Assembly: GCF_029227855.1 (NCBI RefSeq) | Contig: NZ_CP074356.1 | Source: Escherichia coli | GTDB taxonomy: Bacteria; Pseudomonadota; Gammaproteobacteria; Enterobacterales; Enterobacteriaceae | Length of the DNA: 64,000 bases | Reading direction: 5' to 3' (one strand) | Shown: positions 1 through 60,967 of the stretch, piece by piece | Position numbering within the stretch: the first letter of the stretch is position 1 | Layout: every line of letters starts with the position of its first letter | Notes under the pieces: model-generated | Told to the model about the DNA's origin: nothing | The model's input: the letters and a program-made list of their open reading frames with translations, nothing else | The model's database searches: none | Program-made: the position numbers and the translations under genes

Positions 1-1
1 G

Positions 2-2065: not shown

Positions 2066-2115
2066 AACCGTTGCCTGGTGCGCTTCTCTTATCAGGTCTA
2101 CAACCGAGCTAATGT

Positions 2116-2148: not shown

Positions 2149-2160
2149 ACCTGACATAAA

Positions 2161-3180: not shown

Positions 3181-3750
3181 GTGAGCCAATTCATTCCCGT
3201 CGAATTACACCATGCCAGCCGTCTGTTAAATCATGGCCCAACTGTCATGATCACCAGTTTCGATGAGCAATCCCAGCGGCGTAACATTATGGCAGCAGCC
3301 TGGTCAATGCCGGTGGAGTTTGAACCGCCACGCGTGGCGATTGTGGTAGATAAATCGACATGGACCAGGGAGTTGATTGAACGTAATGGTAAGTTTGGCA
3401 TCGTTATCCCGGGTGTTGCAGCAACTAACTGGACGTGGGCGGTGGGAAGTGTGTCGGGGCGTGATGAAGATAAGTTTAATTGCTATGGTATTCCGGTTGT
3501 GAAAGGTCCGGTGCTTGGTTTGCCGCTGGTCGAGGAAAAATGTCTGGCGTGGATGGAGTGTCGCCTGCTACCTGCAACTTCCGCGCAAGAAAAATACGAT
3601 ACGCTATTTGGCGAAGTGGTATCTGCAGCGGCAGACGCACGAGTATTTGTCGAAGGCCGCTGGCAGTTTGATGATGACAAACTCAATACGTTGCATCATT
3701 TAGGTGCTGGCACGTTTGTTACCAGCGGCAAGCGTGTTACGGCAGGTTAA
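3181..3750 (+). CDS. yddH: Flavin reductase-like domain protein
   Basis: 189-aa ORF recognised as YddH; synteny. Confidence 0.85.
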   Translation: MSQFIPVELHHASRLLNHGPTVMITSFDEQSQRRNIMAAAWSMPVEFEPPRVAIVVDKSTWTRELIERNGKFGIVIPGVAATNWTWAVGSVSGRDEDKFNCYGIPVVKGPVLGLPLVEEKCLAWMECRLLPATSAQEKYDTLFGEVVSAAADARVFVEGRWQFDDDKLNTLHHLGAGTFVTSGKRVTAG

Positions 3751-3753
3751 GCA

Positions 3754-3981
3754 TTACATGCTGTAACCGGGTTTCTTTATCAAAGCCTCCATTTGGGGCT
3801 CGATTTCGGCATCCCAGATAGCTTGCCAAGATTCTGGTTGAATCTGCTGTAGAGAAATGCTTATCGAGCTATCTTTACTGTTCAGATGGCGAATAATAAC
3901 GTCGGTAATATCTGCAGCAAGTGCTGCTTTTTGTTGTTCGTCCAGTTCACGCGGAAAACATTTAATGTCTATGTGCGGCAT
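3754..3981 (-). CDS. pptA: Tautomerase PptA (4-oxalocrotonate tautomerase family)
   Basis: Start at MPHIDIK (N-terminal Pro after Met is the tautomerase catalytic signature); 75 aa; longer ORF-track version adds a non-native N-terminal extension. Confidence 0.85.
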
Positions 3982-4286
3982 GATTGTGCTCCTTTTGAAA
4001 GATGTCAGTAAAATTAACACACGTTGTGAATGTCGTGTGTCCGGTAATGCGTTTTTACGGCAATAATGCCTACTTGAAATTGTACATATTTGTACTACAC
4101 ACTTTTAAATAAAGCGCCAATGAAAACGTTAACTTGCAGAATATATTCTTCGCCAACATGCCATTAAGAAAACATCAAGTTCCCGGCTTGCCAATTTGTT
4201 AACGCCCATTATAGTTATTCTTGCCCTCACTAAAAATTTTCATCCGTAATTACCCCCAATAAAAATCCATTCTGGAGACGCTTAAG

Positions 4287-6263
4287 ATGCAGCTTAATCA
4301 TATCGTTAAAAGTCTGCTAATAACGGGATTATTCACCACCAGTTCTTTACCTCTCCTCGCGGCGGAAGCTCCTAAAGACGCCACCGCAGCCACGCAACAA
4401 GCAAACAATTTACTCTACAACCAGTTGCCGTTTGCCGATAACACTGACTTTACTGATGCCCATAAAGGTTTTATTGCCCCTATCCCTCAAGACGTGATTA
4501 AGGGCGAACAAGGGAATGTTATCTGGGATCCACAACATTACGCTTTTATCAAAGAAGGCGATAAAGCCCCTGATACGGTGAATCCGAGTTTATGGCGTCA
4601 GGCGCAACTGATAAATATCAGCGGGTTATTCGAAGTAACTGAAGGTGTCTATCAGATTCGCAATCTCGATCTATCAAATATGACCATCATTGAAGGCAAA
4701 GAGGGTATTACCGTCGTTGATCCCCTTGTTTCAGCAGAAACAGCCAAAGTGGGTATGGATCTCTATTACAAAAATCGCGGCAAAAAACCGGTAGTGGCGG
4801 TTATCTATACACACAGTCATGTCGATCACTACGGTGGTGTTCGTGGCGTAATTGATGAAGCTGACGTTAAATCAGGCAAAGTTAAAATCTATGCGCCAGC
4901 CGGATTTTTGGAGGAAGCCGTTTCCGAAAACATCATGGCTGGCAATGTTATGAGCCGACGAGCCAGTTATATGTATGGCAACTTATTGAAACCTGATGTT
5001 AAAGGCCAGGTGGGGGCTGGACTGGGAACGACTACTTCAGCAGGAACAGTCACGTTGATTGCTCCTACTAACTACATCACCAAAACCGGACAAAAAGAAA
5101 CTATTGACGGGTTGACTTATGATTTCCTGATGGCGCCAGGTTCTGAAGCGCCTTCTGAAATGCTGTGGTTTATTGAAGAAAAGAAACTGATCGAAACCGC
5201 TGAAGATGTCACGCACACCCTTCATAACACCTATTCGCTGCGTGGGGCTAAAATTCGCCAACCGCTGCCGTGGTCAAAATATATTAATGAAGCTCTCAAT
5301 TTGTGGGGTGATAAAGCCGAGATTATTCTCGCTCAACATCACTGGCCAACCTGGGGCAACGATAACGTGGTCAAACTGCTTAAAAGCCAGCGTGATTTGT
5401 ATCGTTACATCAATGATCAAACTCTGCGCATGGCTAATCAAGGGATGACCCGTGATGAAATTGCCGCAAACTTTAAACTGCCCTCTTCACTGGCTAACAC
5501 CTGGGCGAATCGCGGCTATTACGGTTCGGTAAGTCATGACGTGAAAGCAACTTACGTGCTTTATCTCGGCTGGTTTGATGGTAACCCCGCGACGCTTGAT
5601 GAACTGCCGCCAGAAGAAGGCGCAAAAAAATTCGTCGAGTATATGGGCGGTGCTGATGCCATTTTACAGAAAGCCAAACAGGATTATGACCAGGGTAATT
5701 TCCGCTGGGTTGCCCAAGTTGTTAGTAAGGTGGTGTTTGCCGATCCAAACAACCAGGCAGCGAGAGATCTGGAAGCTGATGCGCTTGAGCAGTTAGGCTA
5801 TCAGGCTGAATCTGGGCCGTGGCGTAATTTCTATCTCACTGGTGCACAGGAATTGCGTAATGGCGTACAAAAATTACCAACACCAAATACTGCCAGCCCA
5901 GACACCGTGCGTGCGATGACGCCGGAGATGTTCTTTGATTATCTTGCCGTCCATATTAATGGTGAGAAAGCGGCAGATGCCAAAACCGTGTTGAATTTCG
6001 ATTTTGGTGAAGATGGCGGCACCTATAAAGTGGAGCTTGAAAATGGTGTTCTCAATCATACCGCTGGTGTAGAGGCTTCGGATGCTGATGCCACTATCAC
6101 TCTGTCTCGTGATGTATTGAACAAAATTGTACTGAAAGAAGAGACGCTGAAAGAAGCCACGGCCAAAGGAGATGTCAAAATTACTGGCAATGAGGAAAAA
6201 CTCAACGAGCTGTTAGGTTATATGGATAATTTTGAATTTTGGTTCAATATAGTGACACCATAA
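4287..6263 (+). CDS. Secreted YjcS/SdsA1-like alkyl (aryl) sulfatase, metallo-beta-lactamase fold
   Basis: 658 aa; N-terminal signal peptide (LLITGLFTTSSLPLLAAEA); THSHVDHYGG metal-binding motif; RBS GGAGA upstream. Accessory relative to the K-12 gene order as remembered. Confidence 0.8.
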   Translation: MQLNHIVKSLLITGLFTTSSLPLLAAEAPKDATAATQQANNLLYNQLPFADNTDFTDAHKGFIAPIPQDVIKGEQGNVIWDPQHYAFIKEGDKAPDTVNPSLWRQAQLINISGLFEVTEGVYQIRNLDLSNMTIIEGKEGITVVDPLVSAETAKVGMDLYYKNRGKKPVVAVIYTHSHVDHYGGVRGVIDEADVKSGKVKIYAPAGFLEEAVSENIMAGNVMSRRASYMYGNLLKPDVKGQVGAGLGTTTSAGTVTLIAPTNYITKTGQKETIDGLTYDFLMAPGSEAPSEMLWFIEEKKLIETAEDVTHTLHNTYSLRGAKIRQPLPWSKYINEALNLWGDKAEIILAQHHWPTWGNDNVVKLLKSQRDLYRYINDQTLRMANQGMTRDEIAANFKLPSSLANTWANRGYYGSVSHDVKATYVLYLGWFDGNPATLDELPPEEGAKKFVEYMGGADAILQKAKQDYDQGNFRWVAQVVSKVVFADPNNQAARDLEADALEQLGYQAESGPWRNFYLTGAQELRNGVQKLPTPNTASPDTVRAMTPEMFFDYLAVHINGEKAADAKTVLNFDFGEDGGTYKVELENGVLNHTAGVEASDADATITLSRDVLNKIVLKEETLKEATAKGDVKITGNEEKLNELLGYMDNFEFWFNIVTP

Positions 6264-6275
6264 ATTTACTGCATA

Positions 6276-6301
6276 CCGGGCAGGTATCCTGCCCTTTTTT
6301 G
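6276..6301 (+). terminator. Rho-independent terminator after sulfatase gene
   Basis: GC stem gggcagg-tat-cctgccc followed by T-run (tttttt). Confidence 0.7.
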
Positions 6302-6309
6302 GTTAAAAA

Positions 6310-7407
6310 ATGGCTGAACGAAGAAAAACTCATCACTCATGGAAAACCCGCCGCAATATGGTTATTCGCGGCATGACGATTAGTTTGCCATGGTTTGCTT
6401 TTATCAATGTCAGTTTTGCATTGATAATTTTGCTGCGCCGTGTTCTGTTTAATGACCTTACTCCACCCTGGTTAAATGAAAAAAGCCTTATACATTCTAT
6501 TGATATATCTGCAACGGGTATTCTGCTGATTTGCAGTGGTTTACTACTCATCCCTCGGCAAAAAACATTACCTATCCAGGTGCTATTAGTTGCCCTGAGC
6601 CTGCTATGGTCATGGTGTAGTTATCACTTTATTGCGTACTGGACGCTGCAGTTTGCTTATCCACTATGTGTATTATTAATGCTTAGTGGCGTTGTCGCAA
6701 TTTATTTCCATACCCCATCATTGCTCGCATTTGTCATTCCCTTATGGTTCACCACTCCAATAGCGAGTCTTATGCTTAATCAACAGATCAATATTCATTT
6801 TGCTGTTGTATGGTGTATTTTTTCACTGGCGCTATATGGTGGGCGACTCATTTTGTTACGTTGGTTTGAAGAAGCATGGGTACAAAACAGTTATAACAAC
6901 CAGTTAATTAATCGCCTTGATGCATTAGCACATCGTGCTCCTTTAACTGGGATAGCAAACCGACGTGCAATGAACAGTATCTTACACGACACGATGGATA
7001 ACGGCGGGTCATTTGCTCTTATTATGCTGGATGTCGATTTTTTTAAACGTTACAACGACACTTACGGGCATCCTGCTGGGGATCGTTGTCTAATACAAGT
7101 TGCCGACGCTCTACAGCGTTCAACTCGCCAGTCGGAGGATGTTGTTGTCCGTTATGGTGGCGAAGAGTTTGCCATCATACTTTTTAATGCAACATTGCCG
7201 GAAGCAGAGACGGTAGCAGCCAGAGTGAAGCAAGAACTTAAACTGGCAGCTATCCCACATCAGGCATCTGCTGTTAATGCATTCGTTACGGTTAGTCAGG
7301 GGATTACCTGTTCTGCTCCCGCAAAAACGGCTGAACAAATTATTTCAGATGCCGACGCTGCGTTATACCGGGCGAAAGAAAGTGGGCGAAATCGATGGGC
7401 TTTATAA
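6310..7407 (+). CDS. Membrane-anchored diguanylate cyclase (GGDEF domain, intact GGEEF active site)
   Basis: 365-aa ORF; N-terminal half has multiple hydrophobic helices, C-terminal half has the RYGGEEF motif. Exact start uncertain (alternative ATG at 6358). Confidence 0.75.
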   Translation: MAERRKTHHSWKTRRNMVIRGMTISLPWFAFINVSFALIILLRRVLFNDLTPPWLNEKSLIHSIDISATGILLICSGLLLIPRQKTLPIQVLLVALSLLWSWCSYHFIAYWTLQFAYPLCVLLMLSGVVAIYFHTPSLLAFVIPLWFTTPIASLMLNQQINIHFAVVWCIFSLALYGGRLILLRWFEEAWVQNSYNNQLINRLDALAHRAPLTGIANRRAMNSILHDTMDNGGSFALIMLDVDFFKRYNDTYGHPAGDRCLIQVADALQRSTRQSEDVVVRYGGEEFAIILFNATLPEAETVAARVKQELKLAAIPHQASAVNAFVTVSQGITCSAPAKTAEQIISDADAALYRAKESGRNRWAL

Positions 7408-7480
7408 GCATTAGGGGACTGGACAGATTACGTCTCTCCTCGCTTAACAAGGGCTGACGGAGGGTAATAATTGTCTATAG

Positions 7481-8032
7481 CTATCTTCTTAGCGATGTCT
7501 TTCTGGTATCACATTGGGTCGGTGCAATTATTTTTCCTTTAATACCCATTATGTTAAGAAATTCAGAAACAGCTGTAATCTCATTGTTTTTTTCATTCGT
7601 CTTGATCTTCCAAGGAATCTGACTGTGCATTATTGAGAACACACTAATAACGTGAATCGCTCCCTTGCGACGACTCTTGTCATAAGAGTACCGGAGCGTT
7701 TTTCCATCAATTGCAATGACGTCTTTATCATCTGAAGAATGGCAGTCAAGCATCCAGTTAATAAAGCACTCATGAAATTTTTCAGGACTGATACAGGATA
7801 CAACTCTGGCAATGGTATCGTGAACAGGAATACCATTATCAAAATCACCATATTGCTTCAAAAAATCGAGATGTGTTTCCCCAAAATCCTCTATATCTTC
7901 CCAGCCTTCTGCACCCGAAATAATGGCACAAATAGTCAACAGTAGAATATCCGATAATTTATGTTCCACTTTCCAGGCTTGTCTGTAATCGGGGGTAATA
8001 GAAATATGTTCCATCAATTTTTTAAATTCCAT
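7481..8032 (-). pseudogene. Truncated H-repeat-associated (ISAs1-family) transposase, N-terminal 5' fragment
   Basis: 183-aa ORF about 85 percent identical over roughly 170 aa to the N-terminus of the intact H-rpt ORF at 14075..15211, then diverges and terminates; shared upstream flank as well. Confidence 0.8.
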
Positions 8033-8617
8033 TTTGTTCTCCTTAATTATGTAAGGAGTATTTGATCATGTATAAGCAATAAAAAACAGCTTTAGGTAAT
8101 GAGGAATATCTCAATTTTTAAACATAAAATGCGAATTATTTAGTACAAAAAAGCAGCGTTACGTGATCTTTCCGTGGATCGTCAAATTGTTCGAGAGAAA
8201 ATACCAACATGATGGATTTTACTGTAAAAGTAATGTCGTAGTTTAAAAACTCATCATCCGGTAAAGCCTTGTGGGGCGTGGGCTTTCATACTTTTACCCT
8301 GATGTCTGCTATACGCCGGACACCCTTTACGTAGCATTCGGAATTCACCCGTAAATTTATCACGGCGGTATCACGAAACCTCCGGTTCTGATGCCGCTTA
8401 GGACTAACGACACGTCAACACAGGTTCGGGTTTATTCATTTCACTGTATCTCATATAATCTGAGCACTCCCCCTGCGCTCGCTACTATGACTCTTTACCA
8501 CAGCAACCGGGGTTGTTTGGGATCGGCTTTCAACAGCAGATCCCGGTGGCTATTGCAAGTAAGTCTACTTTCCACATCAGTGTTACTGACACAGAAAATA
8601 ATGAGTTATGATCCTTG

Positions 8618-9103
8618 TCATATTTTTAATATAGCCCCATGAGCTATAGGATCAAAACCTTCTAACCATGAGGTGTTTTTATCGAATAATGCACCTGTTA
8701 TATTTATATCGCCATATCTATCACATAATAAATTAGCGCCACATAAGTCAGCACCAGAAAAATTTGAATCTTTAACGTCTGCATTGCAAAAGGTTGAATT
8801 AGTTAATATAGCACCCTCAAAGTTTGCACCTATTGACCTTGAATTACTAAAGTCACTTCCAGTGAAATCTGAGTTATTAAGAATAGCGTTCATCAGAGCC
8901 GCATTGCGAAAGACAGCATTTCTAGTTGATGTATGTTGAATCATTACATTTCTTAAATGGGAATTTTCAAATTTCGCCCCATCAAGACAATAACCATTGA
9001 GGATGGCACGATGTAGATCCATCCCGCTAAAATCATATCCAGCAAGAGTGGTACTATCTATATCAAGAAATTTATTGGTTATTAAAAACGCGATTCTTAT
9101 CAT
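8618..9103 (-). CDS. Pentapeptide-repeat protein, predicted Rhs immunity protein (positional equivalent of K-12 ydcD)
   Basis: 161 aa; about 20 consecutive A(D/N)(L/F)xx-type pentapeptide repeats ([15 protein letters not shown] ... [15 protein letters not shown]); start codon overlaps the rhs stop in ATGA arrangement; AT-rich. Confidence 0.8.
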
Positions 9104-12100
9104 CTATTCCCCCAATCATCTAACTCCGGAAAAATTTGGCTAAACGGATATAGTGGTGCCGATAATGGACGCGTACCTGGCCGCTCAGGAGGAAGTTTAT
9201 CACATAACAGACCCGCAACCATCCTGTGATTACCATTAACAATCACATTCCCATCCATATCAACCGGTGGTGCTCCACTACCATCTTCCAGCATTTGTAC
9301 GTAGTGAGCTACTACGGGTACTGAGACTTTTTGTTGTACTGTCAACAAGGGACTGTTGGCCACAACCATCCTGATGTTTTCAGGTGTCGCAGGTAAACAT
9401 TTAGTCTTCTCTTGACTAAAGGTATCATCCCACAATTTTGTTAAACCCATCACTGCCTGTTGTCTGTATTTATCCATGGGGTCAGCAATCAACCAAGATG
9501 GACCTGACTGCTCTATGGAATCTTCTCCGGAGAGACCCAACGGATCTATCTTAGTAGTTGGATTCAATGGATACTGATACAGGTTCCATGCACCTCTTAG
9601 CCCAATGGGATCCTGGGTGATATACCGCCCCTGCAACGGGTCATAGTACCGGTTGCGGTTATAGTACAGCCCCGACTCCTCATCATACTGCTGCCCCGGC
9701 AGACGGTACGGCTGTTGCAGTTGCTGCGCGCTGGTTTCGCCCAGCAGGTTTCCCCACTCGTCATACTCCCCCTGCCACGCCGTTTCCCCTACCGGGCTGA
9801 TGAGCGCCTGCGGCAGCCCCCGGTGGTCGCAGTGGTAAAGATGAAGTGTCCTCTCCGGGATGTATTCCGCCTCCATCTGGTTTTTCATCTGTTCCGCCGT
9901 CAGCCCGCACTGCTGAAGCCATGCCTCACTCTCCGCACTCACCGCACCCGCGCGCAGTTCCCGCTCCAGCCTCCCCAGCATCACCGACAGCTCCGCCGGT
10001 AGCGTCACCCCCGTGTCCTCCTGCAACACCTCCGCCAGACTCCGGTGCCGCGCCTTCGCCTGTTCACCATTCTCTGTTTCGATTCTGATGAGCGGCGTGA
10101 AGCTCCCCGGCTGGTATACCGTCTGGATACGCGTGGTGCCGGTCTGTACCGTCGTCAGCCTGTCACCGTCCCACCCGTACCAGGTCTCCTCCGGTTTACG
10201 CGACAGCGACATCCACCCCGTCAGGTCACGCTCCCGCCGCCACACCCGTTTCCCCGTCCGGCGGCCCAGCGGGTCATAGAGGTAGCGGCTCTCCACCTGT
10301 GGTTCGCCGTGCTGTATCCGCGTGTAGAACACCAGGCGGTGCTGGCTGTCGTAATGGTAGTGGTGGGTCCGCTCGTCGTGCATCCGGATAACCCCTTCCG
10401 GGATACGATCCGTCTTCTCCGCCAGCCTGCCGTATTCATCGTGGCGGTAGACATAGTGCGCATCCTCCGCGATGCGGTTATCCGGCCACGCCGTGAAGGT
10501 GCTGTCCGGGTGCAGTTCCGGGTCCGGCAGCCGGTTTCCTGCCGGGTCCGTCGCATACGGGATATCGATATCCAGGTTCGCCGCCGTGGTGTGAACGCCC
10601 GTCAGTCTTCCCGTGTCGCTGTAACGGTACTTCCGGCTCTCCTGCGGGCCGCTGATGCGCACCAGTTGCCCGTTATCGTTCCACGTATACTCACGGTCAA
10701 GCTGCGGAAGGTTCAGGTGCCTGCTCCGGAGCTGCCCTGTGAGGGTGTACGCCATGGCCTGTTCGTACCCCGCTGTACTGCCCGCCCCGCCGAAGCTGCG
10801 GGCCGTCTCACGGTGCAGCCGGTCCCGCGTGTACTCGACCAGCGGCGTTCCGCCCAGCTTCATCCCCGCAAGATAACCGCTGCCATACGTCAGCCACTCC
10901 ACCGGCGGCAGACCGTCCGGCTCCTGACGGGTCGCCAGCCCCTGTTCGCTGTAGACGTGCCTCGTCTCATGCTCCCACAGCATCTCCCCCGTCTCCTGGT
11001 TCTCCACCGTCTGCCGTTCGCCCGTCAGGCGGCCTTTATCGTCATAGCCGTAGTGGACCGCCACACGGTGGCCTTCGCTCAGGTGGCTGATTTCTGTCAG
11101 CCAGCCGTGGTCGTCATACTGCCACTGCTCCGCCGGGTCGCCGTTCACCGTCCGGTGCGTGATGCGCCCGGCGTCATCGTAGTACCACTGCGTGACCTGC
11201 CCCTCATCCTCGCTGCGGATGAGCTGCCCTGTGGCGCTGTACCGGTAACGCTGTGTCCTGCCGTCAAAGCCGCGCTGCTCCGTCAGCCTGTCCACCGGGT
11301 CATACCGGAACGTGGACTGGCTGCCGTTCTCGTTGGTCAGCACGGTGATGCGCCCGGCGGCGTCATACTCCATGCTGCGCGTCAGTCCGCCCTGCGTGGT
11401 GCTGACGGCCTTTCCCCACGCATCATACTGTGTCTCACTCCGGCTGCCGTTCGGGGCAATGATAGCGGTGAGGTCGCCTGCGGCGCTGTACTCATAACGG
11501 GTTTCACGTCCCTGCGCATCCTTCTGACTGACCAGTTGACCACGCGGGTTATAACTGCTGTAAGTGCTGATGCCTTCCTCCCGGTGAACCGCCGTCCTCT
11601 GACCGTACCGGTCGTATTCATACCGCGTCGTGTACCCTGAACAGTCCGTAAATGCCTGAAGCTGACCGTACCGGTTTCGCGTTATTCTCCGCCTCACCCC
11701 GGTTCCGTCTTCCACCGCACAGGGCAGGCCACTGCGGGAAGAATCATAAAACCAGCGCGTAATGTTACCGTTGCGCGAGACCTCTTCCGCCAGCCTGCCC
11801 TGACGGTCATATTTCCGGCTGCGGCGCAGCCCGTCCGGGTACGTCACTGACGTCAGTTGCAACTGGTTGTTGTAACCATACCGTACCGTCCTGCCGTCCG
11901 GCAGTATCACTGAAGTCAGCTTTCCCGACGCCATATGCAGCCGGTACTCCGTCCGCCGTCCCGCCGCATCCGTCTGCGCCTTCAGCCTCCCCGCCTCATC
12001 ATACTCGCTGCGGGTGATGCTCCCGTCCCCATGCTCCTTCTTCACCACCCGCTTCAGGCCGCCCTCGCCCTCCGTGTACAGCACCTCCCGCCGGTTCAGG

Positions 12101-13311
12101 CTGTCCGTGATGGTCACGCGGTCCTGCCCGTACTCAAAGCGGTAGTCCAGCCCCTCCGGGTTGACCTGCTCCGTCACCCGACCGGTATCATCATACCGGT
12201 AGCGGCTCTCCGGCCTCCCCGCATAATGGTGCGCCACCATCCGCCCGGCGTGCTCCGCATCATAAGTAAACCCGCGCACCTGCGTCCCGCTGCGGTCATA
12301 CACCGCCCGCAGTTCTCCGCTGGCCGTGTACGTGTAGCGCGCCAGCGGCGCAGTCGGCAGTTCATCCAGGTATGCCAGGTCGTGTGTCAGCCATACCGCC
12401 TCCAGCCGGATACCGTTATCGGCACCGTACTCTGTACCGGTGGGCAGCGTGTCGGGGAAAACCTGAGAAGAGGAAACAGAACGGGGACTGGCCGGAGAAG
12501 ATAAAGAAGAGGCGCGCTGTTTACGGAAGGCTTTCGCCCGCTGCGCCTGTGTGGTCAGCGCCAGATGAAAACGGCGGCCCGCGCCGTCCGTCACCCCCGT
12601 CACCGCGCCCGCCGCTTCCCCCTCTGCCGCCCGGTGGAAGGCCAGCGTCCGCCCGAAGCTGTCCACCACGCCCGTCAGCACCCGGTATGCGGGCGGCTCC
12701 GGCGGCAGCACCTCGTCCGCCTCCGGCACCCGCTCCGGCCAGCCGAGTATCCACCACGGCCCCTGAAGGCTGTTTGTCGCCAGGTACACATGCGGGCTTA
12801 AGCGGAGACTCTCCGGCAGCACCTGCCAGAGCGCGCTTAGCGGCTGCGAACTGTGCTGCTCCGCCACCCCGCCCCTTGCCAGCCAGAACGACTCGCTGCG
12901 GCTGTAGCTTATCTCGCCGGGAAACAGCGGCTCAAAGTGAATGCTCCTGCCGCCACTGTCGTTGAGTATCAGTTCCCGCTCATGAACCTGTAAGCGGATA
13001 TCGAAGGGCGCTTTCCAGCCGGGACCAAACACCCCCACCGGCGCGGGTGTTCTGGTCCGGTAGCTGCTGTAGGCGCGGGAAAGAATAAACGGCAACGGGC
13101 CGGGCAGCGCAAGATCCGTCTCGCCCGGCAGCACCTTCGCACCCAGTAGCGGGTTCACCGGGTTACCCTTCTGCTCCTCCACCGGGCTGTTGGGACACAC
13201 CGAGCAGGCCACTCCCGTCGGCGCACCTATCAGCACCCCCGCTGAACCCTGCACAATATCCAGTCCCTTGCGGGTCATATCGCCCTGTCGCGCCGCCGGT
13301 TTTCCGCTCAT
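9100..13311 (-). CDS. Rhs polymorphic toxin, full length (PAAR-like N-terminus, YD-repeat core, variable C-terminal tip with ParB-like motif)
   Basis: 1403 aa; N-terminus [11 protein letters not shown]; long GC-rich YD-repeat core; core-end DPxGL motif (..DPIGL..KIDPLGL) followed by an AT-rich roughly 143-aa tip (about 9100..9531). Confidence 0.9.
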
Positions 13312-13731
13312 GGTTTATTCCTTAAATTATTTATGGTTTTATTCTGAGTGCAATCCATACTGATTCATAACCAGTGAATAAGATTTCCCCGAATAATCTA
13401 TATAAATTAGCGAAGTCCTCTTCACTAATTAACCGTAAAATCCCGTACCAATGAAATATAAAAATAACCACCCACACAAATTTATTGCAAATATTATTCA
13501 TTATTGTATATACATCATTCACTGAACGTTCTCAAACTGCATACCTTAGAACCATCAATTAAAGCCACAACAAAAAAATCGATTACTTTATGTCGCATGA
13601 CAAATATGAATTACATATTAATCAACCTTAAAAACAATCATCTCTTATAATTAACAGCATACCATGAGAAACACAAAATCAATTTACCATGCATACCAGG
13701 AGCATAATTAACCTCTCACCGCAGGGCGAAA

Positions 13732-14097
13732 TCATGAAGGCCCGCAGCCAGCAAGGATTAGAGAAAGGTATTCATTCTTACGTCCTGCCCGCTTTTGCTT
13801 GCGTTTAATACCCGCTTTAAAGCTATTCTCTGCGGTCAGTAAATTCATCGCGATATGTCGACAAACTGCCAGATTTTCTCCCGCTTCTCCACGAACAATC
13901 TGGCATTCATCTTCCCGCATCCCCATATCAAGTCGCCAGTGCAGTTGATTTTCTACCGACCAGTGTGCTCGTGTTGCTTCCAGGAGTTCTTTCGCCGTAA
14001 GCGTCACCGAACTTATGTAGTAGCGAAGAATACACTTCTCTGATTTCACCGCTGTTTCTCCTTCCAGGGCAAGATTACGAAAGCCCGCTCCCCGCAA
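13732..14097 (-). pseudogene. H-repeat (ISAs1-family) transposase C-terminal fragment, diverged copy
   Basis: 121-aa ORF whose C-terminal 95 aa align to the C-terminus of the intact H-rpt protein (HWxVENxLHWRLD motif). Confidence 0.65.
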
Positions 14098-15211
14098 GGA
14101 CTGACGCCAGATAGTTTCTGTCCATGGCTGCTTTTCGCATCTTACGTCTTAACCCTGCCTTGAATACCTTATCATTCGTTAAAATATTAATAGCGATGTG
14201 CCGTATCCCTGAAAATAATTCTGCGGCGTTTCCTCTTCCTATTTTGCAGTCGTCTTCATTCATTACCACGTCCAGACGCCAGTGCAGCTTATTCTCCACG
14301 TGCCAGTGGTTTCGGATTGCTGTGGCGAACTTCTCTGCGGTTAAATCAGCAGAACTGATATAATATCTGACCGTCATTTCTGGCTCTTTCTTTTGTTCTG
14401 CTATTATTGACCGAAAGGAGACTGCCACGCATAATTTCTTCAGTCCTTTCCATTCAAACATTAAATCAATAAGTTCATCAGGGACATCACAAACAATGTG
14501 AAGACGGATTTCTTCTCTGCCGTGACTCTTTTCACTAATTGCGTAACTGTCATGCTCTGGATTATTTAATTCTTTCAGTGGGAATTTTTCCTCAAAGGCT
14601 TTATTTAGCCGCCCCTGGTTTCCTTTTACAGCGAATAAATAATCACCTCCCTGTTTTTGTATCTTCTCTGCAATATCTTTCTGGCAACCCATCGCATCAG
14701 TTGTGATGATTTTTCCTTTAATATCCAGCATGTTAAGAAGTTCAGGGATAGCTGTAATTTCATTTGATTTCTCATCCGTCCTGATCTGTCCGATGACCAG
14801 ACTGTGCATTGTTGAGAACGCACTAATGACATGAATCGCTCCCTTGCGGCGACTCTTGTCATAAGGATGCCGGAGTGTTTTTCCATCAATTGCGATGACG
14901 TCTTTATCAGCTGAAGAATGGCAGTCACGCATCCAGTTAATAAAGCACTCGTGAAATTTTGCAGGACTGATACAGGATACAACTCTGGCAATGGTATCGT
15001 GAACAGGAATACCATTTTCAAAATCACCATATTGCTTCAAAAAATCGAGATGTGTTTCCCCAAAATCCTCTATATCTTCCCAGCATTCTGCACCAAAAAT
15101 AACGGCACAAATAGTCAACAGTAGAATATCCGACAATTTATGTTCCACTTTCCAGGCTTGTCTGTAATCGGGGATAATAGAAATATGTTCCATCAATTTT
15201 TTAAGTTCCAT
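14075..15211 (-). CDS. H-repeat-associated protein / ISAs1-family transposase (intact)
   Basis: 378 aa, recognised as E. coli H-rpt (YdcC/YhhI-like) protein. Confidence 0.9.
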
Positions 15212-15557: not shown

Positions 15558-15932
15558 TTACTCTAATGGTTTTATTAATTGTAAATTTTTAAATGTCATG
15601 CTTAATAAGCCATCAGAAAAATAAAGAAAAAATTTATATATCCTTTTGTTTTTTAATTTCTTTATATACCCATTACTTATATTACCTGACTTGTGATTAT
15701 CGATTAACTCAGCAGAATCCATAGCGAACACTAAATCATCTACATCAGAAAATTCAACTATCATTTTTTCCCTAATGTTCTCATTTTTATAAATGTCAAT
15801 AAATAACGTCATGTTAAAATGAGATTCTTTGAATGTCGTTTTTACTTCTAACAAAACCCCATCATGCCAGTCAATTGAACTCACAATGTCAAAATCGCTC
15901 ATTATATAATCTCCATTATCCGTTTTAATCAT
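15558..15932 (-). CDS. Predicted immunity protein for Rhs copy-2 toxin (hypothetical, AT-rich)
   Basis: Start chosen at MIKTDNGDY so that ATG overlaps the toxin stop (ATGA coupling); very AT-rich; no recognisable domain. Longer alternative start at 15965. Confidence 0.6.
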
Positions 15933-18900
15933 GGAGTAACAACGTTTGCAGGTATTGACCACCAAAGAGGTGGTGCAAGTGAAGGTATAAATCGAATCAC
16001 TCTATATATAACATACCCTGCGCCAATTGTAGCACCAGTTGCAAGAGCCGCATCAGTAGTTGATAGCCCAGAGGTTTTGCATGACAGATCTTTACTTGGT
16101 TCTGGCTCGAAACCATATTTTTTTGCACATTTCTTAATGCTATTTGGTGCTGATGAGTAATCCTCACCATGGGACATACCTCCAAATTCCCCCATTACAC
16201 CACTCCCATTTTTACACTCCCAATGCAAATGTCTTCCGTCACCAACAGCATCGCCATCTATTCGGATTCGACAACCTTTACCACAGTCCTTCCATTTTCC
16301 TGAAGTATGAGCTAATCCCAATGGATCAATCCATTGCACAGGATTGTTCATAACATAACTGTACGGGTTTATTCCCCCCGCCAGCCCTATCGGGTCCTGG
16401 ATGATATACCGCCCCTGCAACGGATCGTAGTACCGGTGACGGTTATAATACAGCCCCGACTCCTCATCGTGTTGCTGCCCTGGCAGACGGTACGGCTGGT
16501 GCAGGTGATGCGGGTTTTCCTCATTCAGCAGGTTCCCCACTCATCATACTCCCCGCTCCACGCCGTATTGCCGTCTTCGCTGATGAGCGCCAGCGGCAGG
16601 CCCCGGTGGTCGCAGTGGTAAAGATGAACTTTTCGCGCCGGTGTGTATTCCGGCTCCACCTGTCTGGCCAGTTGCTCCACCGTCAGCCCGCACTGCGCAA
16701 GCCACGCCCGGCTTTCGTTACTCACGCGGTCTGCCCGGATTTCTCCCTCCAGCCTGTCCAGCAGCCGCACCAGTTCAGCCGGGAACACCACACCGTGCCC
16801 GTCCTCACTCCCTTCCGACTGTAACTTCTCCGCCAGGCTGCGGCGCTGCGCTTTCTCCCGTTCGCCGTTCTCTGTTTCGATGCGGATGAGTGGCGTGAAG
16901 CTTCCCGGCTCGTATACCGTCTGGATACGTGTGGTGTCAGTCTGCACCGTCGTCAGCCTGTCGCCGTCCCACCCGTACCATGTCTCCTCCGGTTTACGCG
17001 ACAGCGACATCCACCCCGTCAGGTCACGCTCCCGCCGCCATACCCGTTTCGCCATTCGCCGTCCCAGCGGGTCGTAGAGGTAGCGGCTCTCGACCAGTGG
17101 CTCGCCATGCTGTATCCGCGTGTAGAACACCAGGCGGTGCTGGCTGTCGTAGTGGTAGTGGTGGGTCCGCTCGTCGTCCGTCCGTATCACACCCGCCGGG
17201 ATGCGGTCCGTCTTCTCTGTCAGCCTGCCGTATTCATCGTGGCGGTAGACATAGTGCGCATCCTCCGCGATGCGGTTATCCGGCCACGCCGTGAGTGTAC
17301 TGTCCGGGTGCAGCTCCGGGTCCGGCAGCCGGTTGCCCGCCGGGTCCGTGGCATACGGGATGCGGATGTCCAGGTCCGGTGCGAGGGTGCGTACACTCGC
17401 CAGCCTGCCCGTGGCACTGTAGCCGTATTCCCGCGTCTGTCGCGGGCCGCTGATGCGCACAAGGTCGCCGTTGTCATTCCACCCGTAGTCACGGTCATAC
17501 ACCAGGCTGTTCAGGTGCTGGCTCTGTAACTGGCCTGCAGGGGTGTATGTGCTGGTCAGTTCGTATGCGGCATTACTGCCTGCCATGCTGCCAAAGCTGC
17601 GCACCGTCTCCCGGTGCAGCCTGTCCCGCGTATACTCGACCCGCGGCGTCCCGCCCAGCTTCATTCCCGCCAGGTAACCGCTGCCATAGGTCAGCCACTC
17701 CACCGGCGGCAGGCTGTCCGGCGTGACGCGGTTTGCCAGCCCCTGTTCGTTGTATGCCTGTTTCGTCTCATGCTGCCACAGCAGTTCCCCCGTCTCCGGG
17801 TTCTTCACCGTCTGGCGCTCACTGGTCAGACGGCCTTTATCGTCATAGCCGTAGTGGACCGCCACACGGTGGCCTTCACTGGTATGGCTGAGGGTGGTTA
17901 ACCACCCGTGCTCATCATACTGCCACTGCTCTGCCGGGTCGCCGTTCACCGTCCGGTGCGTGATGCGGTCTGCTTCATCGTAGTACCACTGCGTGACCTG
18001 CCCCTCATCCTCGCTGCGGATGAGCTGCCCTGTGGCGCTGTACCGGTAACGCTGTGTCCTGCCATCAAAGCCGCGCTGCTCCGTCAGGCGGTCCAGCACA
18101 TCGTAGGTAAATTCACTCCGGCTGCCGTTCTCGTTGGTCAGCGTGGTGACACGTCCTGCCGCGTCATACTCCATACTGCGCGTCAGCCCGCCCTGCGTGG
18201 TGCTGACCGCTTTTCCCCACGCATCGTACTGTGTCTCGCTCCGGTTGCCGTCCGGGGTGATAACGGCAGTCAGGTCGCCTGCGGCGTTGTACTCATACTG
18301 CGTTTCACGGCCCTGTGCGTCTTTCACCGAGGTTAACCGGCCACGGTTGTCATAGCGGCGGTAACGGCTGATACCTTCCTCGCGGTGGACCGCCGTCATC
18401 TGACCAAAGCGGTCGTATTCATAGCGGGTCTGGTAGCCCGAGCAGTCGGTGAACGCCAGCAACTGACCGTAGCGGCTCCAGGTCATCTGCCGGGTGCTGC
18501 CCGTCGCATCCATTGTCGTCGCCGGTAACTCACTGTACGCGTCATCGTAGCGGTAGCGTACTGTCTCCCCGCTGCGCGATGTCTCCGTTACCAGCCTGCC
18601 CGGTTCATCATATGCCCGGCGGCTCTCCAGCCCGTCCGGGGACACCACTGCCGTCACCTGGTTCCCGTCGTTATAGTAAAATTTCGTCTCCCGCCCGTCC
18701 GGTGTGGTGATGTCCGTGATATCGCCTGACACCACATTCAGACCGTACTCTGTCCGCCGTCCCGCCGCGTCCGTCTGCGCCGTAAGCCTTCCTGCCGCGT
18801 CATACCCACTGTGCGTGGCGCTGCCGTCCGCCAGTTCTTTTTTCACCACCCGCCTCAGCCCGGCCCCGCCTTCTGTATGCAGCACCTCACGCCGGTTCAG

Positions 18901-20088
18901 GCTGTCCGTGACGGTGATGCGGTCCTGCTCATACTGGTAGCGGTAACTCAGGCCTGCCGGGTTCAGCTGCTCCACCACCCGCCCCGCATCGTCGTAGCGG
19001 TAGCGCATCTCCGGCCTTCCCGCGTAACGGTGCGCCACCATCCGGCCCGGGTGCTGCGCGTCATACGTGAAAGCGCGCACCTGCGTATTGCTGCGGTCAT
19101 ATACCGCCAGCAGTTCACCGGCTTCCGTATACGTGTACCGCGCCAGTGGCGCACCGGGCAGATTCTCCGGGTATGCCGGGTCATGCATCAGCCACACCGC
19201 TGAAAGACGGATGCCCCTGTCGGGGCCGTATTCCGTACCGGGCAGTGTGTCGGGGAACGCTGAGGCTGAGAGAGGGCGGGAACGGTCAGAAGAAGATAGC
19301 GAAGAGGTGCGGGCCTCTTCCGCCCGCTGCGCCTGCGTGGTCAGCACCAGACGGAACTTCCGCCCGGCACCGTCCGTCACGCCGGTGATTTCCCCGGCCA
19401 GGTCACCGGCGGCCTCACGCCGGTACGTCAGCGTCTGCCCGAAGCGGTCCGCCAGCCCGGTAAGCACCCGGTACGGCGGCAGCGGCGCTGGCAGTACGTC
19501 CTCAGTGCCCGGCACCCGCTCTGACCACCCCAGTATCCACCACGGTCCCTGTGCGCTGTTGGTCGCCAGGTAAAGATGCGGGCTTAACCGGATATCCGGC
19601 GGCAGCGACGGCCACAGCCGTGCCAGCGTGTGGCCGTCCGGCTGCGCTGCCTTACCACCGCGAACCAGCCACATTGACTCGCTGCGGCTGTACACCGCCT
19701 CCCCCGGCAGCAGCGGCTCAAAGTGAATGCTCCGCCCGCCGTTGTCGTTGAGTATCAGTCCGTCATCACGTATCTGTAAGCGGATATCAGAAGGCGCTTT
19801 CCAGCCGGGGCCAAAAATCCCCACCGGCGCAGGCGTCTTCGTCCGGTAGCTGCTGTAGGTGCGGGAGAGAATGAACGGCAGCGGGCCGGGCAGCGCAAGG
19901 TCCGTCTCGCCGGGCAGCACCTTCGCCCCCAGCAGCGGATTTACCGGGTTGCCCGAAGTCATCCCGCCCGGACACACCGAGCACGCCACGCCGGTGGACG
20001 CGCCAATTCTTACACCTGCCGAACCCTGGACAATGGGACCGCCATACTGAGTCATATCTCCCTGACGCGCCGCTGGTTTTCCGCTCAT
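15929..20088 (-). pseudogene. Rhs polymorphic toxin copy 2, interrupted by a 1-nt frameshift between core (16525..20088) and DPxGL/toxin tip (15929..16540)
   Basis: 1187-aa core ORF ends ..EYDEWGTC while a separate 203-aa ORF carries the core end ([38 protein letters not shown]) and a Cys/His-rich tip. Rhs copy 1 has tttcccca where copy 2 has ttcccca (around 16531..16539). Confidence 0.8.
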
Positions 20089-49604: not shown

Positions 49605-50320
49605 GGTTTTTCAAATGCGCCTATAAGGCTCTCTTACCAGCCGCGCCCTAACAGGCGCACACGATCTGACATTTGCATCCAACTTCGTTACTTACGGCCC
49701 GTAAACGGGCTGCCCGGATAGGGAATCGATAACTGCTCTCCCATTTTATCCTCTTCAAGCTGGTGCTTTGTGTAATCCTGTATCTTCGCCGTGTTCTTAC
49801 CCACTGTATCGACGTAGTACCCTCTGCACCAGAACTCCCTGTTCCTGTATTTGAATTTCAAATCACCAAACTGCTCGTAAAGCATCAGACTGCTTTTCCC
49901 TTTCAGATATCCCATAAACCCGGATACGCTCATTTTAGGCGGGATCTCCACAAGCATATGGATATGATCTGCACAGCATTCAGCTTCCAGAATCCGTACG
50001 CTTTTCCACTCACACAGCTTTCTCAAAATACTGCCTATTGCTCTACGCTTCTCTCTGTAGAACACCTGTCTTCGGTATTTTGGCGCAAAAACTATGTGAT
50101 ATTTACAGTTCCATCGGGTGTGCGCTAAGCTCTTTTCGTTCCCCATTGGGACCCCCTTTTGATTTCTTGTTTGACACTTGCAGTTGCCAGACCGCAAGGT
50201 GTTTTAACAAATCAAAAGGGGTTTTAATAACAGGCTCAAAGCTGAAAGCTTTCCGGAACCCCCAGCCTAGCTGGGGGTTTTCTGTGCACAAAAAAGCCGC
50301 CTGGCTGGCGGCTTAGGAAA
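49605..50320 (-). mobile_element. IS200 insertion sequence (IS200/IS605 family)
   Basis: About 0.71 kb element with 459-bp tnpA, perfect palindrome near the tnpA-proximal end (aacccccagcctagctgggggtt, about 50260..50283) and a second hairpin; boundaries approximate. Confidence 0.75.
49688..50146 (-). CDS. tnpA: IS200 Y1 (HUH) transposase TnpA
   Basis: 152 aa starting MGNEKSLAHTRWNCKYHIVFAPKYRR; catalytic HxH (DHIHMLVEIPP) and Tyr region; near-identical to IS200 TnpA as remembered. Confidence 0.9.
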   Translation of the reverse strand: MGNEKSLAHTRWNCKYHIVFAPKYRRQVFYREKRRAIGSILRKLCEWKSVRILEAECCADHIHMLVEIPPKMSVSGFMGYLKGKSSLMLYEQFGDLKFKYRNREFWCRGYYVDTVGKNTAKIQDYTKHQLEEDKMGEQLSIPYPGSPFTGRK

Positions 50321-56729: not shown

Positions 56730-56994
56730 TACCGTTGTCTCTCTTCCAGGTTTACTCCTGATAGAAAGTCATCGGCACTTGACGGTAATTTCTTACGACC
56801 AAAAACCTCTTTGCGTCACATTTTTACAACAATTATGGCAGAGAAGAATAATGCCATTGGAATGAAGAGAGTAACGAATGATTAAACTGGCTAAACCGAA
56901 TGACGAAAAATTCTGGAAAACAGCACGCAATTTCGTGAAGTGATTATTTTCGTCCCTAAGGAAACCTCATAGGATGCCTGCGGGTGCCTGAGAC

Positions 56995-57069
56995 TTTCTG
57001 TTTTCAGGCTAACCGGGAATCAGAAAGACGAAGGCCCCGACCGATATTTCTATCAACCGAGGCCAACGA

Positions 57070-57075
<6 letters not shown>
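56995..57075 (-). ncRNA. sokB: sokB antisense RNA (approximate position, inferred from hok/sok architecture)
   Basis: Not delimited from sequence; placed opposite the mokB translation initiation region by analogy with hok/sok loci. Confidence 0.3.
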
Positions 57076-57277
<202 letters not shown>

Positions 57278-57692: not shown

Positions 57693-57756
57693 CTTCCGAT
57701 GTAGACCCGTATTCTTCGCCTGTACCACGGGTCGGTTTTAGTACAGGCGTTTTCTT
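57693..57756 (+). ncRNA. rydC: Hfq-dependent small RNA RydC
   Basis: Sequence cttccgatgtagacccgtattcttcgcctgtaccacgggtcggttttagtacaggcgttttctt matches RydC as remembered, with terminal hairpin and U-run. Confidence 0.8.
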
Positions 57757-57766: not shown

Positions 57767-58297
57767 TCAGGAACGTTTACGCGGCATCATGCGTAGAAGT
57801 GTGTTGTCCTTCCAGAAATAGTGGTGTGCCAGTGCAGCCGCAGCGTGCAACCCGATGACAAAATATCCCAGATTCGCCAGCATTTCATGCCACGACTTTA
57901 AGCTATCAACCCGTTCGAAATTGGTCTCTGATGCATAAGGCATCGTCAAACCAAACGCAAACCACGGGTTGCCTCGGTTATACATCATCACCAAACCAAT
58001 CACTGGCAGCGCAATAAACAGGAGATAAATCACCAAATGTCCCAAATGCGCCAGTCCCGTCATCATCGGTTTTGGCTTAGGTATAATCGGCGGGGTTGGG
58101 TATTTCAGCCTTAACAAAAGACGAACGACCATCAGCACGAGAATTGATATGCCACAGGAAACATGAATCATGTTGATGAGTGGCCGATCGCTACGTGGGA
58201 AGAAACCCCGAAACTCCATTGCGCAATACGCTGCAATAACCAGCAAAAAGACCAGCCAGTGAATGCTGATTTGTAACCTTGAGTATTTATTTCCCAT
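57767..58297 (-). CDS. cybB: Cytochrome b561
   Basis: Start at MGNKYS gives 176 aa; four hydrophobic helices with conserved His. Confidence 0.85.
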   Translation of the reverse strand: MGNKYSRLQISIHWLVFLLVIAAYCAMEFRGFFPRSDRPLINMIHVSCGISILVLMVVRLLLRLKYPTPPIIPKPKPMMTGLAHLGHLVIYLLFIALPVIGLVMMYNRGNPWFAFGLTMPYASETNFERVDSLKSWHEMLANLGYFVIGLHAAAALAHHYFWKDNTLLRMMPRKRS

Positions 58298-58485
58298 AAC
58301 ATTTCCTGCTTTAACATAATTTGCCGTTAACATAACGAGCTTTTCTTAAAATTTCATTAAATATTGTTCACCCGTTTTCAGTACGTTACGTTTCACGGCA
58401 AGAATGTAGATTGCCCATCCCGCCATCGTGGTCTAAGCCTGGAAAGGATCAATTTTCATCCGAACGTTCCTGACAGGAGAAGACC

Positions 58486-59487
58486 ATGAGTAAAGTTGGT
58501 ATTAATGGTTTTGGTCGTATCGGTCGACTGGTGTTGCGTCGATTACTTGAAGTCAAAAGCAACATAGACATTGTTGCTATTAATGATCTCACTTCCCCAA
58601 AAATTCTCGCCTACCTGTTGAAACATGATTCAAACTACGGACCGTTCCCCTGGAGCGTTGATTTTACGGAAGATTCACTTATCGTTGATGGAAAAAGTAT
58701 CGCGGTTTACGCCGAAAAAGAGGCTAAAAATATTCCGTGGAAAGCGAAAGGCGCAGAAATCATTGTCGAATGTACTGGCTTTTATACCTCCGCCGAGAAA
58801 TCGCAGGCGCATCTTGATGCTGGTGCGAAGAAGGTGTTGATTTCCGCCCCTGCCGGTGAAATGAAAACCATCGTTTATAACGTCAATGACGACACACTGG
58901 ATGGCAACGACACCATTGTTTCCGTGGCGTCATGCACCACTAATTGTCTTGCACCGATGGCCAAAGCCTTGCACGACAGTTTCGGAATAGAAGTCGGCAC
59001 GATGACGACCATTCATGCCTATACCGGCACTCAGTCACTGGTGGATGGCCCGCGTGGTAAAGATCTACGCGCTTCACGTGCAGCGGCAGAAAATATCATT
59101 CCCCACACTACGGGGGCGGCAAAAGCCATTGGTCTGGTGATCCCAGAACTGAGCGGCAAACTGAAAGGTCATGCACAACGCGTACCCGTGAAAACCGGTT
59201 CGGTGACTGAACTGGTGTCTATTCTTGGAAAAAAAGTGACTGCCGAAGAGGTGAACAACGCGCTTAAAAACGCGACAAACAATAACGAGTCATTTGGTTA
59301 TACCGATGAAGAAATAGTCTCTTCCGATATCATTGGCAGCCATTTCGGTTCGGTGTTTGATGCCACGCAAACCGAAATTACCGCCGTGGGCGATTTACAG
59401 CTGGTGAAAACGGTCGCCTGGTATGATAACGAATATGGCTTCGTCACGCAGCTTATTCGCACCCTCGAAAAATTCGCTAAACTCTGA
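58486..59487 (+). CDS. gapC: Glyceraldehyde-3-phosphate dehydrogenase C, apparently intact
   Basis: Uninterrupted 333-aa GAPDH ([18 protein letters not shown] active-site Cys). Confidence 0.85.
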
Positions 59488-59496
59488 CGCACACAG

Positions 59497-59517
59497 GCGG
59501 AGGAAAAACCTCCGCCT
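59497..59517. terminator. Hairpin between convergent gapC and aldA (putative bidirectional terminator)
   Basis: ggcggagg-aaaaa-cctccgcc perfect stem-loop. Confidence 0.5.
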
Positions 59518-59527: not shown

Positions 59528-60967
59528 TTAAGACTGTAAATAAACCACCTGGGTCTGCAGATATTCATGCAGGCCATGTTTACCATCTGCGCCGCCAATA
59601 CCGGATTTACGCCATCCGGCGTGGAATCCTTGCATAGCTTCGAAGTTTTCACGGTTGATGTAAGTTTCACCAAACTTCAGCCCTTTAATGGCTTTCATCG
59701 CGACGTTCAGATTTTGGGTATAGATTGATGAGGTCAGGCCGTAATCACTGTCATTAGCCATTGCGATAGCCTCTTCCAGCGTGTCAAATGCGACCACTGG
59801 CAGCACCGGGCCAAAGGTTTCCTCGTGCATAATCGACATATCCTGGCGAACATCCAGCAGCAATGTCGGCGGATAATAATATCCTTTCCCCTCTACCGCT
59901 TTGCCACCCAACGCCACTCTCGCCCCTTCTTCTACTGCGCGCGCCACTTTTTGCTCGACCCTTTCCAGCGCCGCGGCGTTAATCAACGGCCCCATCGCAA
60001 TGTCGTTGCGTTCAGCGGGGTTACCAAATTGAACCGCCTGCAACGCTTCACCCAGCCGATTGACGAACTGATCATAAATGCCTTTCTGTACATAAACACG
60101 TTCTGCACAGTTACACACTTGCCCACTATTAATGACGCGTGAATCAACGATGGCTTTGACTGCCAGTTCAAGATCGGCATCGTCCATTACGATAGCCGGT
60201 GCTTTACCCCCCAGTTCCAGGCACACTTTGGTGATGTTTTTCGCCGCAGTCGCCATAATCTTTTCACCTGCAGAGACGCTGCCTGTCATACTGACCATTG
60301 CGACCTTTGGGTTACCCGCCAGTTCTTGCCCAACGGTTTCACCACGCCCCAGAACAAGGTTAAACACGCCGCGCGGAAGGCCTATTTCATCGACGATTTT
60401 GGCGAATGCAATCGCATTGTTTGGCGTAAATTCACTGGGTTTAATGACGATGGTATTACCGGTCAAAAGAGCGGGAGCCATTTTGCGGGCAATGAGGAAG
60501 AACGGGAAGTTCCACGGCAGAATGCCGGTAGTCACGCCAAGCGCACGTTTGAACAGAAGAATATTTTCTCCTGGACGATCGCTTTGAATAATCTCGCCTT
60601 CATAACGCCGTGCCCACTCCGCCATGTAATCGATATAGTCCGCAGTAAAAGCCACTTCGACTTCAGCCAGCTGCTGGATCTTGCCCCCTTCTTCAACAAT
60701 CAGCGCACTGATTTCGCTGGCGCGTTTGCGGATCCCGGCGGAGATTTTGCGCAACCAACTGGCGCGTTCAATAGCAGGCAACGCTTCCCATTCTGGTTGT
60801 GCACGTTCTGCTGCATCGATTGCCTTACGGGCATCCTCGGCCTGACCATCGGGAATGCGGGAAATGACAGCCTCTGTAGCAGGGTTTACCACATCAATCC
60901 ATGCGTCTCCACGCCAGGTAACAAACTGTCCATCAATATACATAGGATGTTGAACGGGTACTGACAT
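59528..60967 (-). CDS. aldA: Lactaldehyde dehydrogenase
   Basis: 479-aa aldehyde dehydrogenase. Confidence 0.9.
   Translation of the reverse strand: MSVPVQHPMYIDGQFVTWRGDAWIDVVNPATEAVISRIPDGQAEDARKAIDAAERAQPEWEALPAIERASWLRKISAGIRKRASEISALIVEEGGKIQQLAEVEVAFTADYIDYMAEWARRYEGEIIQSDRPGENILLFKRALGVTTGILPWNFPFFLIARKMAPALLTGNTIVIKPSEFTPNNAIAFAKIVDEIGLPRGVFNLVLGRGETVGQELAGNPKVAMVSMTGSVSAGEKIMATAAKNITKVCLELGGKAPAIVMDDADLELAVKAIVDSRVINSGQVCNCAERVYVQKGIYDQFVNRLGEALQAVQFGNPAERNDIAMGPLINAAALERVEQKVARAVEEGARVALGGKAVEGKGYYYPPTLLLDVRQDMSIMHEETFGPVLPVVAFDTLEEAIAMANDSDYGLTSSIYTQNLNVAMKAIKGLKFGETYINRENFEAMQGFHAGWRKSGIGGADGKHGLHEYLQTQVVYLQS

Follow-up and report, generated by a model that had tools for sequence, protein, structure and literature searches.

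The gapC locus of Escherichia coli raises the question of whether a strain in which the gene is uninterrupted has a second functional glyceraldehyde-3-phosphate dehydrogenase (GAPDH), and of whether such a strain or K-12 is the exception. In K-12 MG1655, gapC (b4493, formerly gapC_1/gapC_2) is annotated as a pseudogene, and in the K-12 derivative DH1 the gene carries the PGAP remark 'frameshifted; internal stop'. The stretch of E. coli DNA analysed here, 64,000 nucleotides in length (hereafter the window), contains at this locus an ORF that begins with ATG and encodes 333 amino acids followed by a stop codon, with no internal stop, as seen in both the ORF list and the sequence itself (Table 1). 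The original prediction for this ORF was that it is an uninterrupted gapC with the hallmarks of GAPDH, that K-12 gapC is a pseudogene disrupted by a frameshift or a stop, and that the strain may retain a functional second GAPDH.

Table 1. Features of the window discussed in the text, in window coordinates
Feature	Position	Strand	Basis
gapC ORF	58486..59487	+	ORF list; sequence reading
gapC codon 39, AAA (Lys); TAA in K-12	58600..58602	+	alignment; allele-specific 31-mer probes
Catalytic Cys150 codon, TGC	58933..58935	+	motif position (SCTTNC)
Catalytic His177 codon, CAT	59014..59016	+	motif position
A7 run, codons 248-250, gene nt 744-750; A6 in K-12 (1-bp deletion, frameshift)	59229..59235	+	alignment
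Shine-Dalgarno-like AGGAG, 6 nt before the gapC ATG	58475..58479	+	sequence reading; function inferred
Divergent cybB-gapC intergenic region, 188 bp, presumed gapC promoter region	58298..58485	.	94.7% identical to K-12 (alignment)
cybB (cytochrome b561 / superoxide oxidase)	57767..58297	-	ORF; annotation in JNEC-KY178, K-12
aldA (aldehyde dehydrogenase A, 479 aa, intact)	59528..60967	-	ORF; annotation in JNEC-KY178, K-12
GC-rich 9-bp hairpin (GGCGGAGGA / loop AAAAC / CCTCCGCC region) between gapC and aldA	59495..59517	.	
sRNA RydC	57693-57756	+	Rfam, gathering level; position as K-12 map predicts
sok antitoxin RNA of hokB locus	56982-57133	+	Rfam, gathering level; position as K-12 map predicts
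Hfq-binding sRNA STnc490	50156-50279	-	Rfam, gathering level
Truncated ISAs1-type transposase ORF	7484-8032	-	
group-II-D1D4-2 (group II intron 5' domain model), 48 bits vs gathering 36	8442-8550	-	Rfam
Pentapeptide-repeat ORF	8621-9103	-	
RHS core protein, 1403 aa	9103-13311	-	
Full ISAs1 transposase	14078-15211	-	

Profile searches establish that the ORF is a real gene and not a chance ORF: the protein matches the NCBIfam model for type I GAPDH, TIGR01534, with E=6.8e-134 and 446.2 bits, above the curated equivalog cut-off of 367.2, and contains both Pfam GAPDH domains, that is, the N-terminal NAD-binding Rossmann domain (Gp_dh_N, 122.7 bits) and the C-terminal catalytic domain (Gp_dh_C, 195.8 bits). 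The TIGR01534 match extends over protein residues 3-325 and over positions 1-330 of the 330-position profile. The NAD-binding motif NGFGRIGR occupies residues 7-14 and the catalytic Cys150 is in place, so that the uninterrupted 333-residue frame and the GAPDH hallmarks both stand as originally described; to these can be added the catalytic His177 and, in the sequence AINDL at residues 31-35, the NAD-preferring residue Asp34. The window gene is 100% identical to a CDS annotated 'gap' (WP_000048645.1) in the clinical isolate JNEC-KY178, and an identical protein occurs on at least 1000 publicly available contigs, under the name 'MULTISPECIES: type I glyceraldehyde-3-phosphate dehydrogenase [Enterobacteriaceae]'.

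According to one alternative, the window GapC has the GAPDH fold and acts on another substrate or with another cofactor, being similar to Epd (GapB), NADP-dependent or coupled to ArsJ. The GAPDH family does have specialised paralogues, and several of the corresponding models match GapC at sub-threshold level; however, every specialised model is far below its cut-off, whereas the generic type I model passes. GapC scores 307 bits against a cut-off of 450 for the ArsJ-associated GAPDH model and 279.9 against 539 and 277.4 against 530.55 for the two erythrose-4-phosphate dehydrogenase models (PRK13535 / TIGR01532), and thus falls outside erythrose-4-phosphate dehydrogenase, just as, with 302.4 bits against 662, it falls outside the GapA-type family PRK15425. 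The preference of Asp34 for NAD, and the lack of an arsJ gene adjoining gapC, further argue against a specialised activity. The kinetics published for a nearly identical protein were obtained with glyceraldehyde-3-phosphate and NAD+ (PMC8615399). We consider a different substrate or cofactor extremely unlikely, and retain the reading of the gene as encoding a type I GAPDH.

The nearly identical protein is that of the PDB 7C5F series (about 14 entries, including 7C5F, 7C5G, 7C5H and 7C7K), which matches the window GapC over the full 333 residues with 725 bits. The 7C5F chain and the window GapC are identical at 330 of 333 residues, and the three substitutions, I29V, N262Q and N265T, are natural polymorphisms among intact gapC alleles. 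The corresponding paper calls the protein 'EcGAPDH1' and reports NADH-forming oxidation of glyceraldehyde-3-phosphate with a Km of 0.73 mM, under the unusual assay conditions of 50 deg C and pH 10, abolition of activity by the substitution C150A, an approximately 8000-fold drop in activity with H177A, and capture of the thioacyl intermediate (PMC8615399). By sequence identity alone, EcGAPDH1 is GapC; the available passages of the paper give neither the name gapC nor the source strain. An assignment of EcGAPDH1 to GapA was considered and rejected: GapC is 47% identical to K-12 GapA, and GapA has PDB entries of its own (1S7C, 1DC3, 1GAD). If the window enzyme works as its 330/333-identical counterpart does, Cys150 would attack glyceraldehyde-3-phosphate to give a thiohemiacetal, a hydride would pass to NAD+ with His177 as the base, and inorganic phosphate would attack the thioacyl intermediate, releasing 1,3-bisphosphoglycerate.

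The pattern of substitution among gapC alleles provides a second line of evidence for function. For 11 intact alleles, we find a mean dS of 0.107 (with values up to 0.2), a mean dN of 0.0042 and a mean dN/dS of 0.039. A dN/dS of about 0.04 indicates strong, long-term purifying selection on the GapC protein. We conclude that the window gene is, with high probability, an ordinary intact E. coli gapC allele, that is, a chromosomal paralogue of gapA whose product is a type I GAPDH with phosphorylating, NAD-dependent activity.

The pairwise alignment with the K-12 gapC region that had been proposed as a check shows that K-12 does not have the same intact ORF. The global alignment contains 40 mismatches and one gap, with 96.0% identity. 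Two of the differences are lesions in K-12, both absent from the window gene: codon 39, AAA in the window, is a TAA stop in K-12 (TAA39), and the run of seven A residues at codons 248-250 has lost one residue, shifting the frame. Because it carries both TAA39 and the 1-bp deletion in the A run, K-12 makes no full-length GapC. The stop aside, only four missense differences separate the two sequences. The statement that K-12 gapC is a pseudogene by frameshift or stop is therefore correct, both in the annotation of b4493 and in the sequence, with the refinement that K-12 has lesions of both types. Given that the K-12 lesions are verified, and that a 330/333-identical protein is reported to be active (PMC8615399), the proposal that the strain may retain a functional second GAPDH gains support, at the level of sequence comparison.

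In principle, a broken gene could appear intact through an error of sequencing or assembly, for example a miscall in the A7 homopolymer: some sequencing chemistries are prone to errors in homopolymers, and it is in a homopolymer that K-12 has its frameshift. Against this, the identical sequence is present in an independent complete genome and the exact protein recurs on the large set of public contigs cited above; all 10 of the intact alleles sampled from other genomes keep the frame through the run, in most cases as an unchanged A7; and the wild-type codon 39 is independent of any homopolymer. The chance that intactness is artefactual is, in our estimate, vanishingly small, and we take the gapC frame in the window to be real. 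Two of the sampled intact alleles differ in or near the run. In strain AR_0017, gene nt 741-751 read GGAAAGAAAG, with a synonymous G that breaks the A7 run, and this allele should, because its A run is interrupted, be less prone to a K-12-type frameshift. In strain 104 the change, from GGA to GCA (G248A), immediately precedes the run.

The position of the gene identifies it as the orthologue of K-12 gapC. The window gapC sits between cybB, which is divergent, and aldA, which is convergent, the order aldA-gapC-cybB being the same in K-12; farther out are rydC, ydcA, hokB/sok and trg on one side and ydcF and hrpA on the other. This position relative to aldA and cybB, together with 95-100% identity to the single-copy locus of other genomes, marks the gene as E. 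coli gapC. From position 14065 to position 64000 the window is 99.988% identical to the JNEC-KY178 sequence (6 mismatches in 49,936 bp). In a comparison of the locus with K-12, identity is 95.9% for gapC, 98.2% for aldA, 97.7% for cybB and 95.7% for hrpA. We rejected the idea that gapC is unusually divergent, as it might be after a recent lateral transfer or recombination event, since its identity to K-12 is within the range of those three genes. Mobility of gapC through 'plasmid' copies was likewise rejected: the five matches in the plasmid collection are records of 4.8-4.9 Mb or of 250-385 kb. The gapC-bearing PLSDB 'plasmid' records in question, NZ_CP141089.1, NZ_OL790696.1 and NZ_CP134663.1 (4.8-4.9 Mb) and NZ_CP141085.1 and CP054253.1 (250-385 kb), are probably chromosomes, or pieces of them, that were labelled wrongly.

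Downstream, the hairpin between gapC and aldA folds as RNA with -18.2 kcal/mol (z=-4.71), a stability reached by none of 200 shuffled sequences. A consensus terminator scan did not call this hairpin, its U-tract being weak or unclear. The hairpin is a probable terminator shared by the convergent genes gapC and aldA.

The frequency of intact and broken alleles determines which state of gapC is the exception. A megablast search finds the gapC locus, in single copy, in 5417 of 5426 complete E. coli genomes. A 31-mer specific for TAA39 matches 1154 of the 5426, and a 31-mer specific for AAA39 matches 3711, so that AAA39 has at least 3711 carriers. Together the two probes cover 4865 of the 5417 genomes, and the shortfall of about 550 results at least partly from flanking SNPs; the O157:H7-type allele, for example, has two SNPs inside the codon-39 probe and yet has AAA at codon 39. 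A probe for the A6 frameshift matches 1050 of the 5426 genomes. The share of genomes without the frameshift was derived from this count in combination with the megablast span lengths. Of 12 non-frameshift loci sampled over the range of identity, 10 are annotated as intact, one has the TAA39 stop only and one is cut at an IS1 element. These results put the share of complete E. coli genomes with an intact gene at roughly three quarters, and that with a K-12-type dead copy at roughly one fifth, in a genome collection biased to laboratory K-12 derivatives and clinical isolates. Since an intact gapC is what most genomes have, the window strain is typical and K-12 is the exception. The allele itself is of a minority type, with 112 of the 5417 genomes at 99% nucleotide identity or higher.

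The locus cut at an IS1 element belongs to strain SCPM-O-B-7615 (NZ_CP144926.1; positions 3001-5178 of locus L015), in which the 3' four fifths of gapC, together with the 3' end of aldA, are missing and IS1A stands in their place; a stub of 198 bp is what is left of gapC. This event is an independent route to gapC loss. In strain 2015C-3108 (NZ_CP027307.1; positions 1344-1602 of locus L007), gapC is intact and the adjoining aldA is annotated as frameshifted.

The distribution of the K-12 lesions bears on their origin. When TAA39 carriers are sampled at even spacing, approximately two thirds prove to be human, animal, water or food isolates, and all five of the non-laboratory carriers that were checked, from a Virginia opossum, raw-milk cheese, cattle dung, beach water and sheep, have gapC annotated 'frameshifted; internal stop'. 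The stop-only member of the 12-locus sample, a pig isolate, has TAA39 and keeps A7. The existence of a stop-only isolate, together with the finding of TAA39 in more genomes than the frameshift (1154 vs. 1050), suggests, as the most likely order of decay within the lineage, a codon-39 nonsense mutation followed by a 1-bp slippage deletion in the A7 run. Both lesions occur in wild isolates, so that the pseudogene is no product of laboratory domestication; K-12 inherited an allele that is natural to its lineage. A secondary source implies that gapC was lost through laboratory domestication, an impression that the wild occurrence of both lesions corrects. The lineage pattern of the lesions is well supported. 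A wider proposal strikes us as unlikely when taken as a whole: the K-12 pseudogene would be the result of an ancient decay in two natural steps that became fixed throughout a large lineage of wild strains, GapC would have a conditional role (for instance under sigma-S-dependent, nutrient-poor or out-of-host conditions) for which this lineage has no further need, and the loss might even be adaptive there. The adaptive or niche-linked reading within this proposal is speculation.

An intact reading frame could nevertheless be effectively silent in the window strain: a cryptic gene with no physiological part, in which a lesion is merely yet to come. About a fifth of E. coli genomes, those of wild isolates included, belong to strains that live without gapC, and GapA is the established glycolytic GAPDH. 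The promoter region could also be read in this way. A sigma-70 consensus scan found no match strictly inside the cybB-gapC intergenic region, the nearest match being at 58291-58320 (+) and overlapping the start of cybB; the result fits a sigma-S-type gapC promoter, without demonstrating one. Read from an ATG farther upstream, the cybB ORF spans 57767-58333 (-) and 188 aa, while all annotated genomes start the gene 36 nt later (531 bp/176 aa), and the extended ORF is overlapped by the same match, the sole sigma-70-like match that faces gapC.

Evidence for expression and selection weighs against a silent gene. The primary study on environmental expression of gapC is reportedly that of Espinosa-Urgel and Kolter in 1998. 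A secondary source describes gapC as intact in environmental isolates, as expressed preferentially in fresh water and as having environment-specific promoter activity (PMC2949598), and a review cites the same environmental-expression study for an adaptive role of gapC in aquatic survival (PMC1796617). In EPEC, the gapC transcript is detected and falls in a csrA mutant (PMC6333774). Even for the K-12 pseudogene, gapC-1/gapC-2 transcript levels are lower upon inactivation of rpoS (PMC2759082), and one of the ChIP peaks of sigma-S has been attributed to gapC_1/cybB (PMC4447067). A dN/dS of about 0.04 at dS values up to 0.2, finally, is the signature of long-term purifying selection on the protein. 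We regard a silent gapC as very unlikely, and infer instead that the window allele is expressed and active in the window strain, with a role that is presumably conditional (in stationary phase, under carbon limitation or outside the host), bulk glycolysis being carried by GapA.

Elsewhere, the window contains features that are separate from gapC. Positions 1-14064, unlike the remaining 50 kb, are not colinear with JNEC-KY178; this segment has narV-like, PhzF-like and nhoA-like genes, an alkyl sulfatase gene and a GGDEF/MASE5 gene, after which come the truncated transposase, pentapeptide-repeat and RHS core ORFs listed in Table 1, with the full ISAs1 transposase beyond them, and it looks like a variable RHS/ISAs1 island. 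The group-II-D1D4-2 match is located downstream of the RHS core, with the truncated ISAs1 ORF on one side of it and the pentapeptide-repeat gene on the other; the ORF list contains no reverse-transcriptase ORF adjoining it, and it may be an intron fragment. A second RHS core gene, beside a T6SS Vgr gene, carries a frameshift annotation in JNEC-KY178 (positions 1865-6024 of locus L016, equivalent to window positions ~15929-20088).

Taken together, the evidence points to a simple account in which the window strain, like about three quarters of sequenced E. coli, would keep gapC under purifying selection, and K-12 and its natural relatives would have inherited a dead copy. That gapC can be intact is already known: the intact gene is documented as the E. 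coli norm, and the enzyme has been purified, assayed and crystallised. The original prediction, in setting the strain against K-12, missed the point that an intact gapC is usual in E. coli and that the exception is K-12. Beyond correct annotation, the intactness of gapC in one more strain matters little. For strains with the gene, an intact gapC means a second catalytically competent GAPDH, and K-12 metabolic models and gapA essentiality results may therefore not transfer to them. As a near-universal E. coli marker gapC is also useful in its own right, and it serves as the species marker in a urine qPCR assay that refers to UniProt P58072 and Hidalgo et al. 1996 (PMC10614358).

Comparison with known systems places the window gene as follows. 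Epd (GapB), the erythrose-4-phosphate dehydrogenase, is a GAPDH-family paralogue in the same genome, and the window GapC is far below the cut-offs of both models for that enzyme. GapA (b1779), the main glycolytic GAPDH, shares with GapC the fold, the motif SCTTNCLAP and the NAD-dependent phosphorylating chemistry, but differs from it in more than half of the sequence (47% identity) and in its family model, PRK15425, whose cut-off the window GapC does not reach. GapA entries are absent among the 60 PDB matches listed for the window GapC, and most of the better-scoring matches (e.g. 3k73, 4qx6) are presumably GAPDHs of Firmicutes such as Staphylococcus and Streptococcus. The K-12 pseudogene (b4493) occupies the orthologous locus with the same neighbours, and differs in its two lesions, which K-12 alone of the two has. 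The closest counterpart is E. coli GapC as already described, P58072 of O157:H7, WP_000048645.1 and, in crystals, the 'EcGAPDH1' of the 7C5F series: it is the same gene at the same locus, with the same Cys150 and His177, and the window protein differs from the crystallised enzyme in allele only, having I29, N262 and N265 where that enzyme has V, Q and T.
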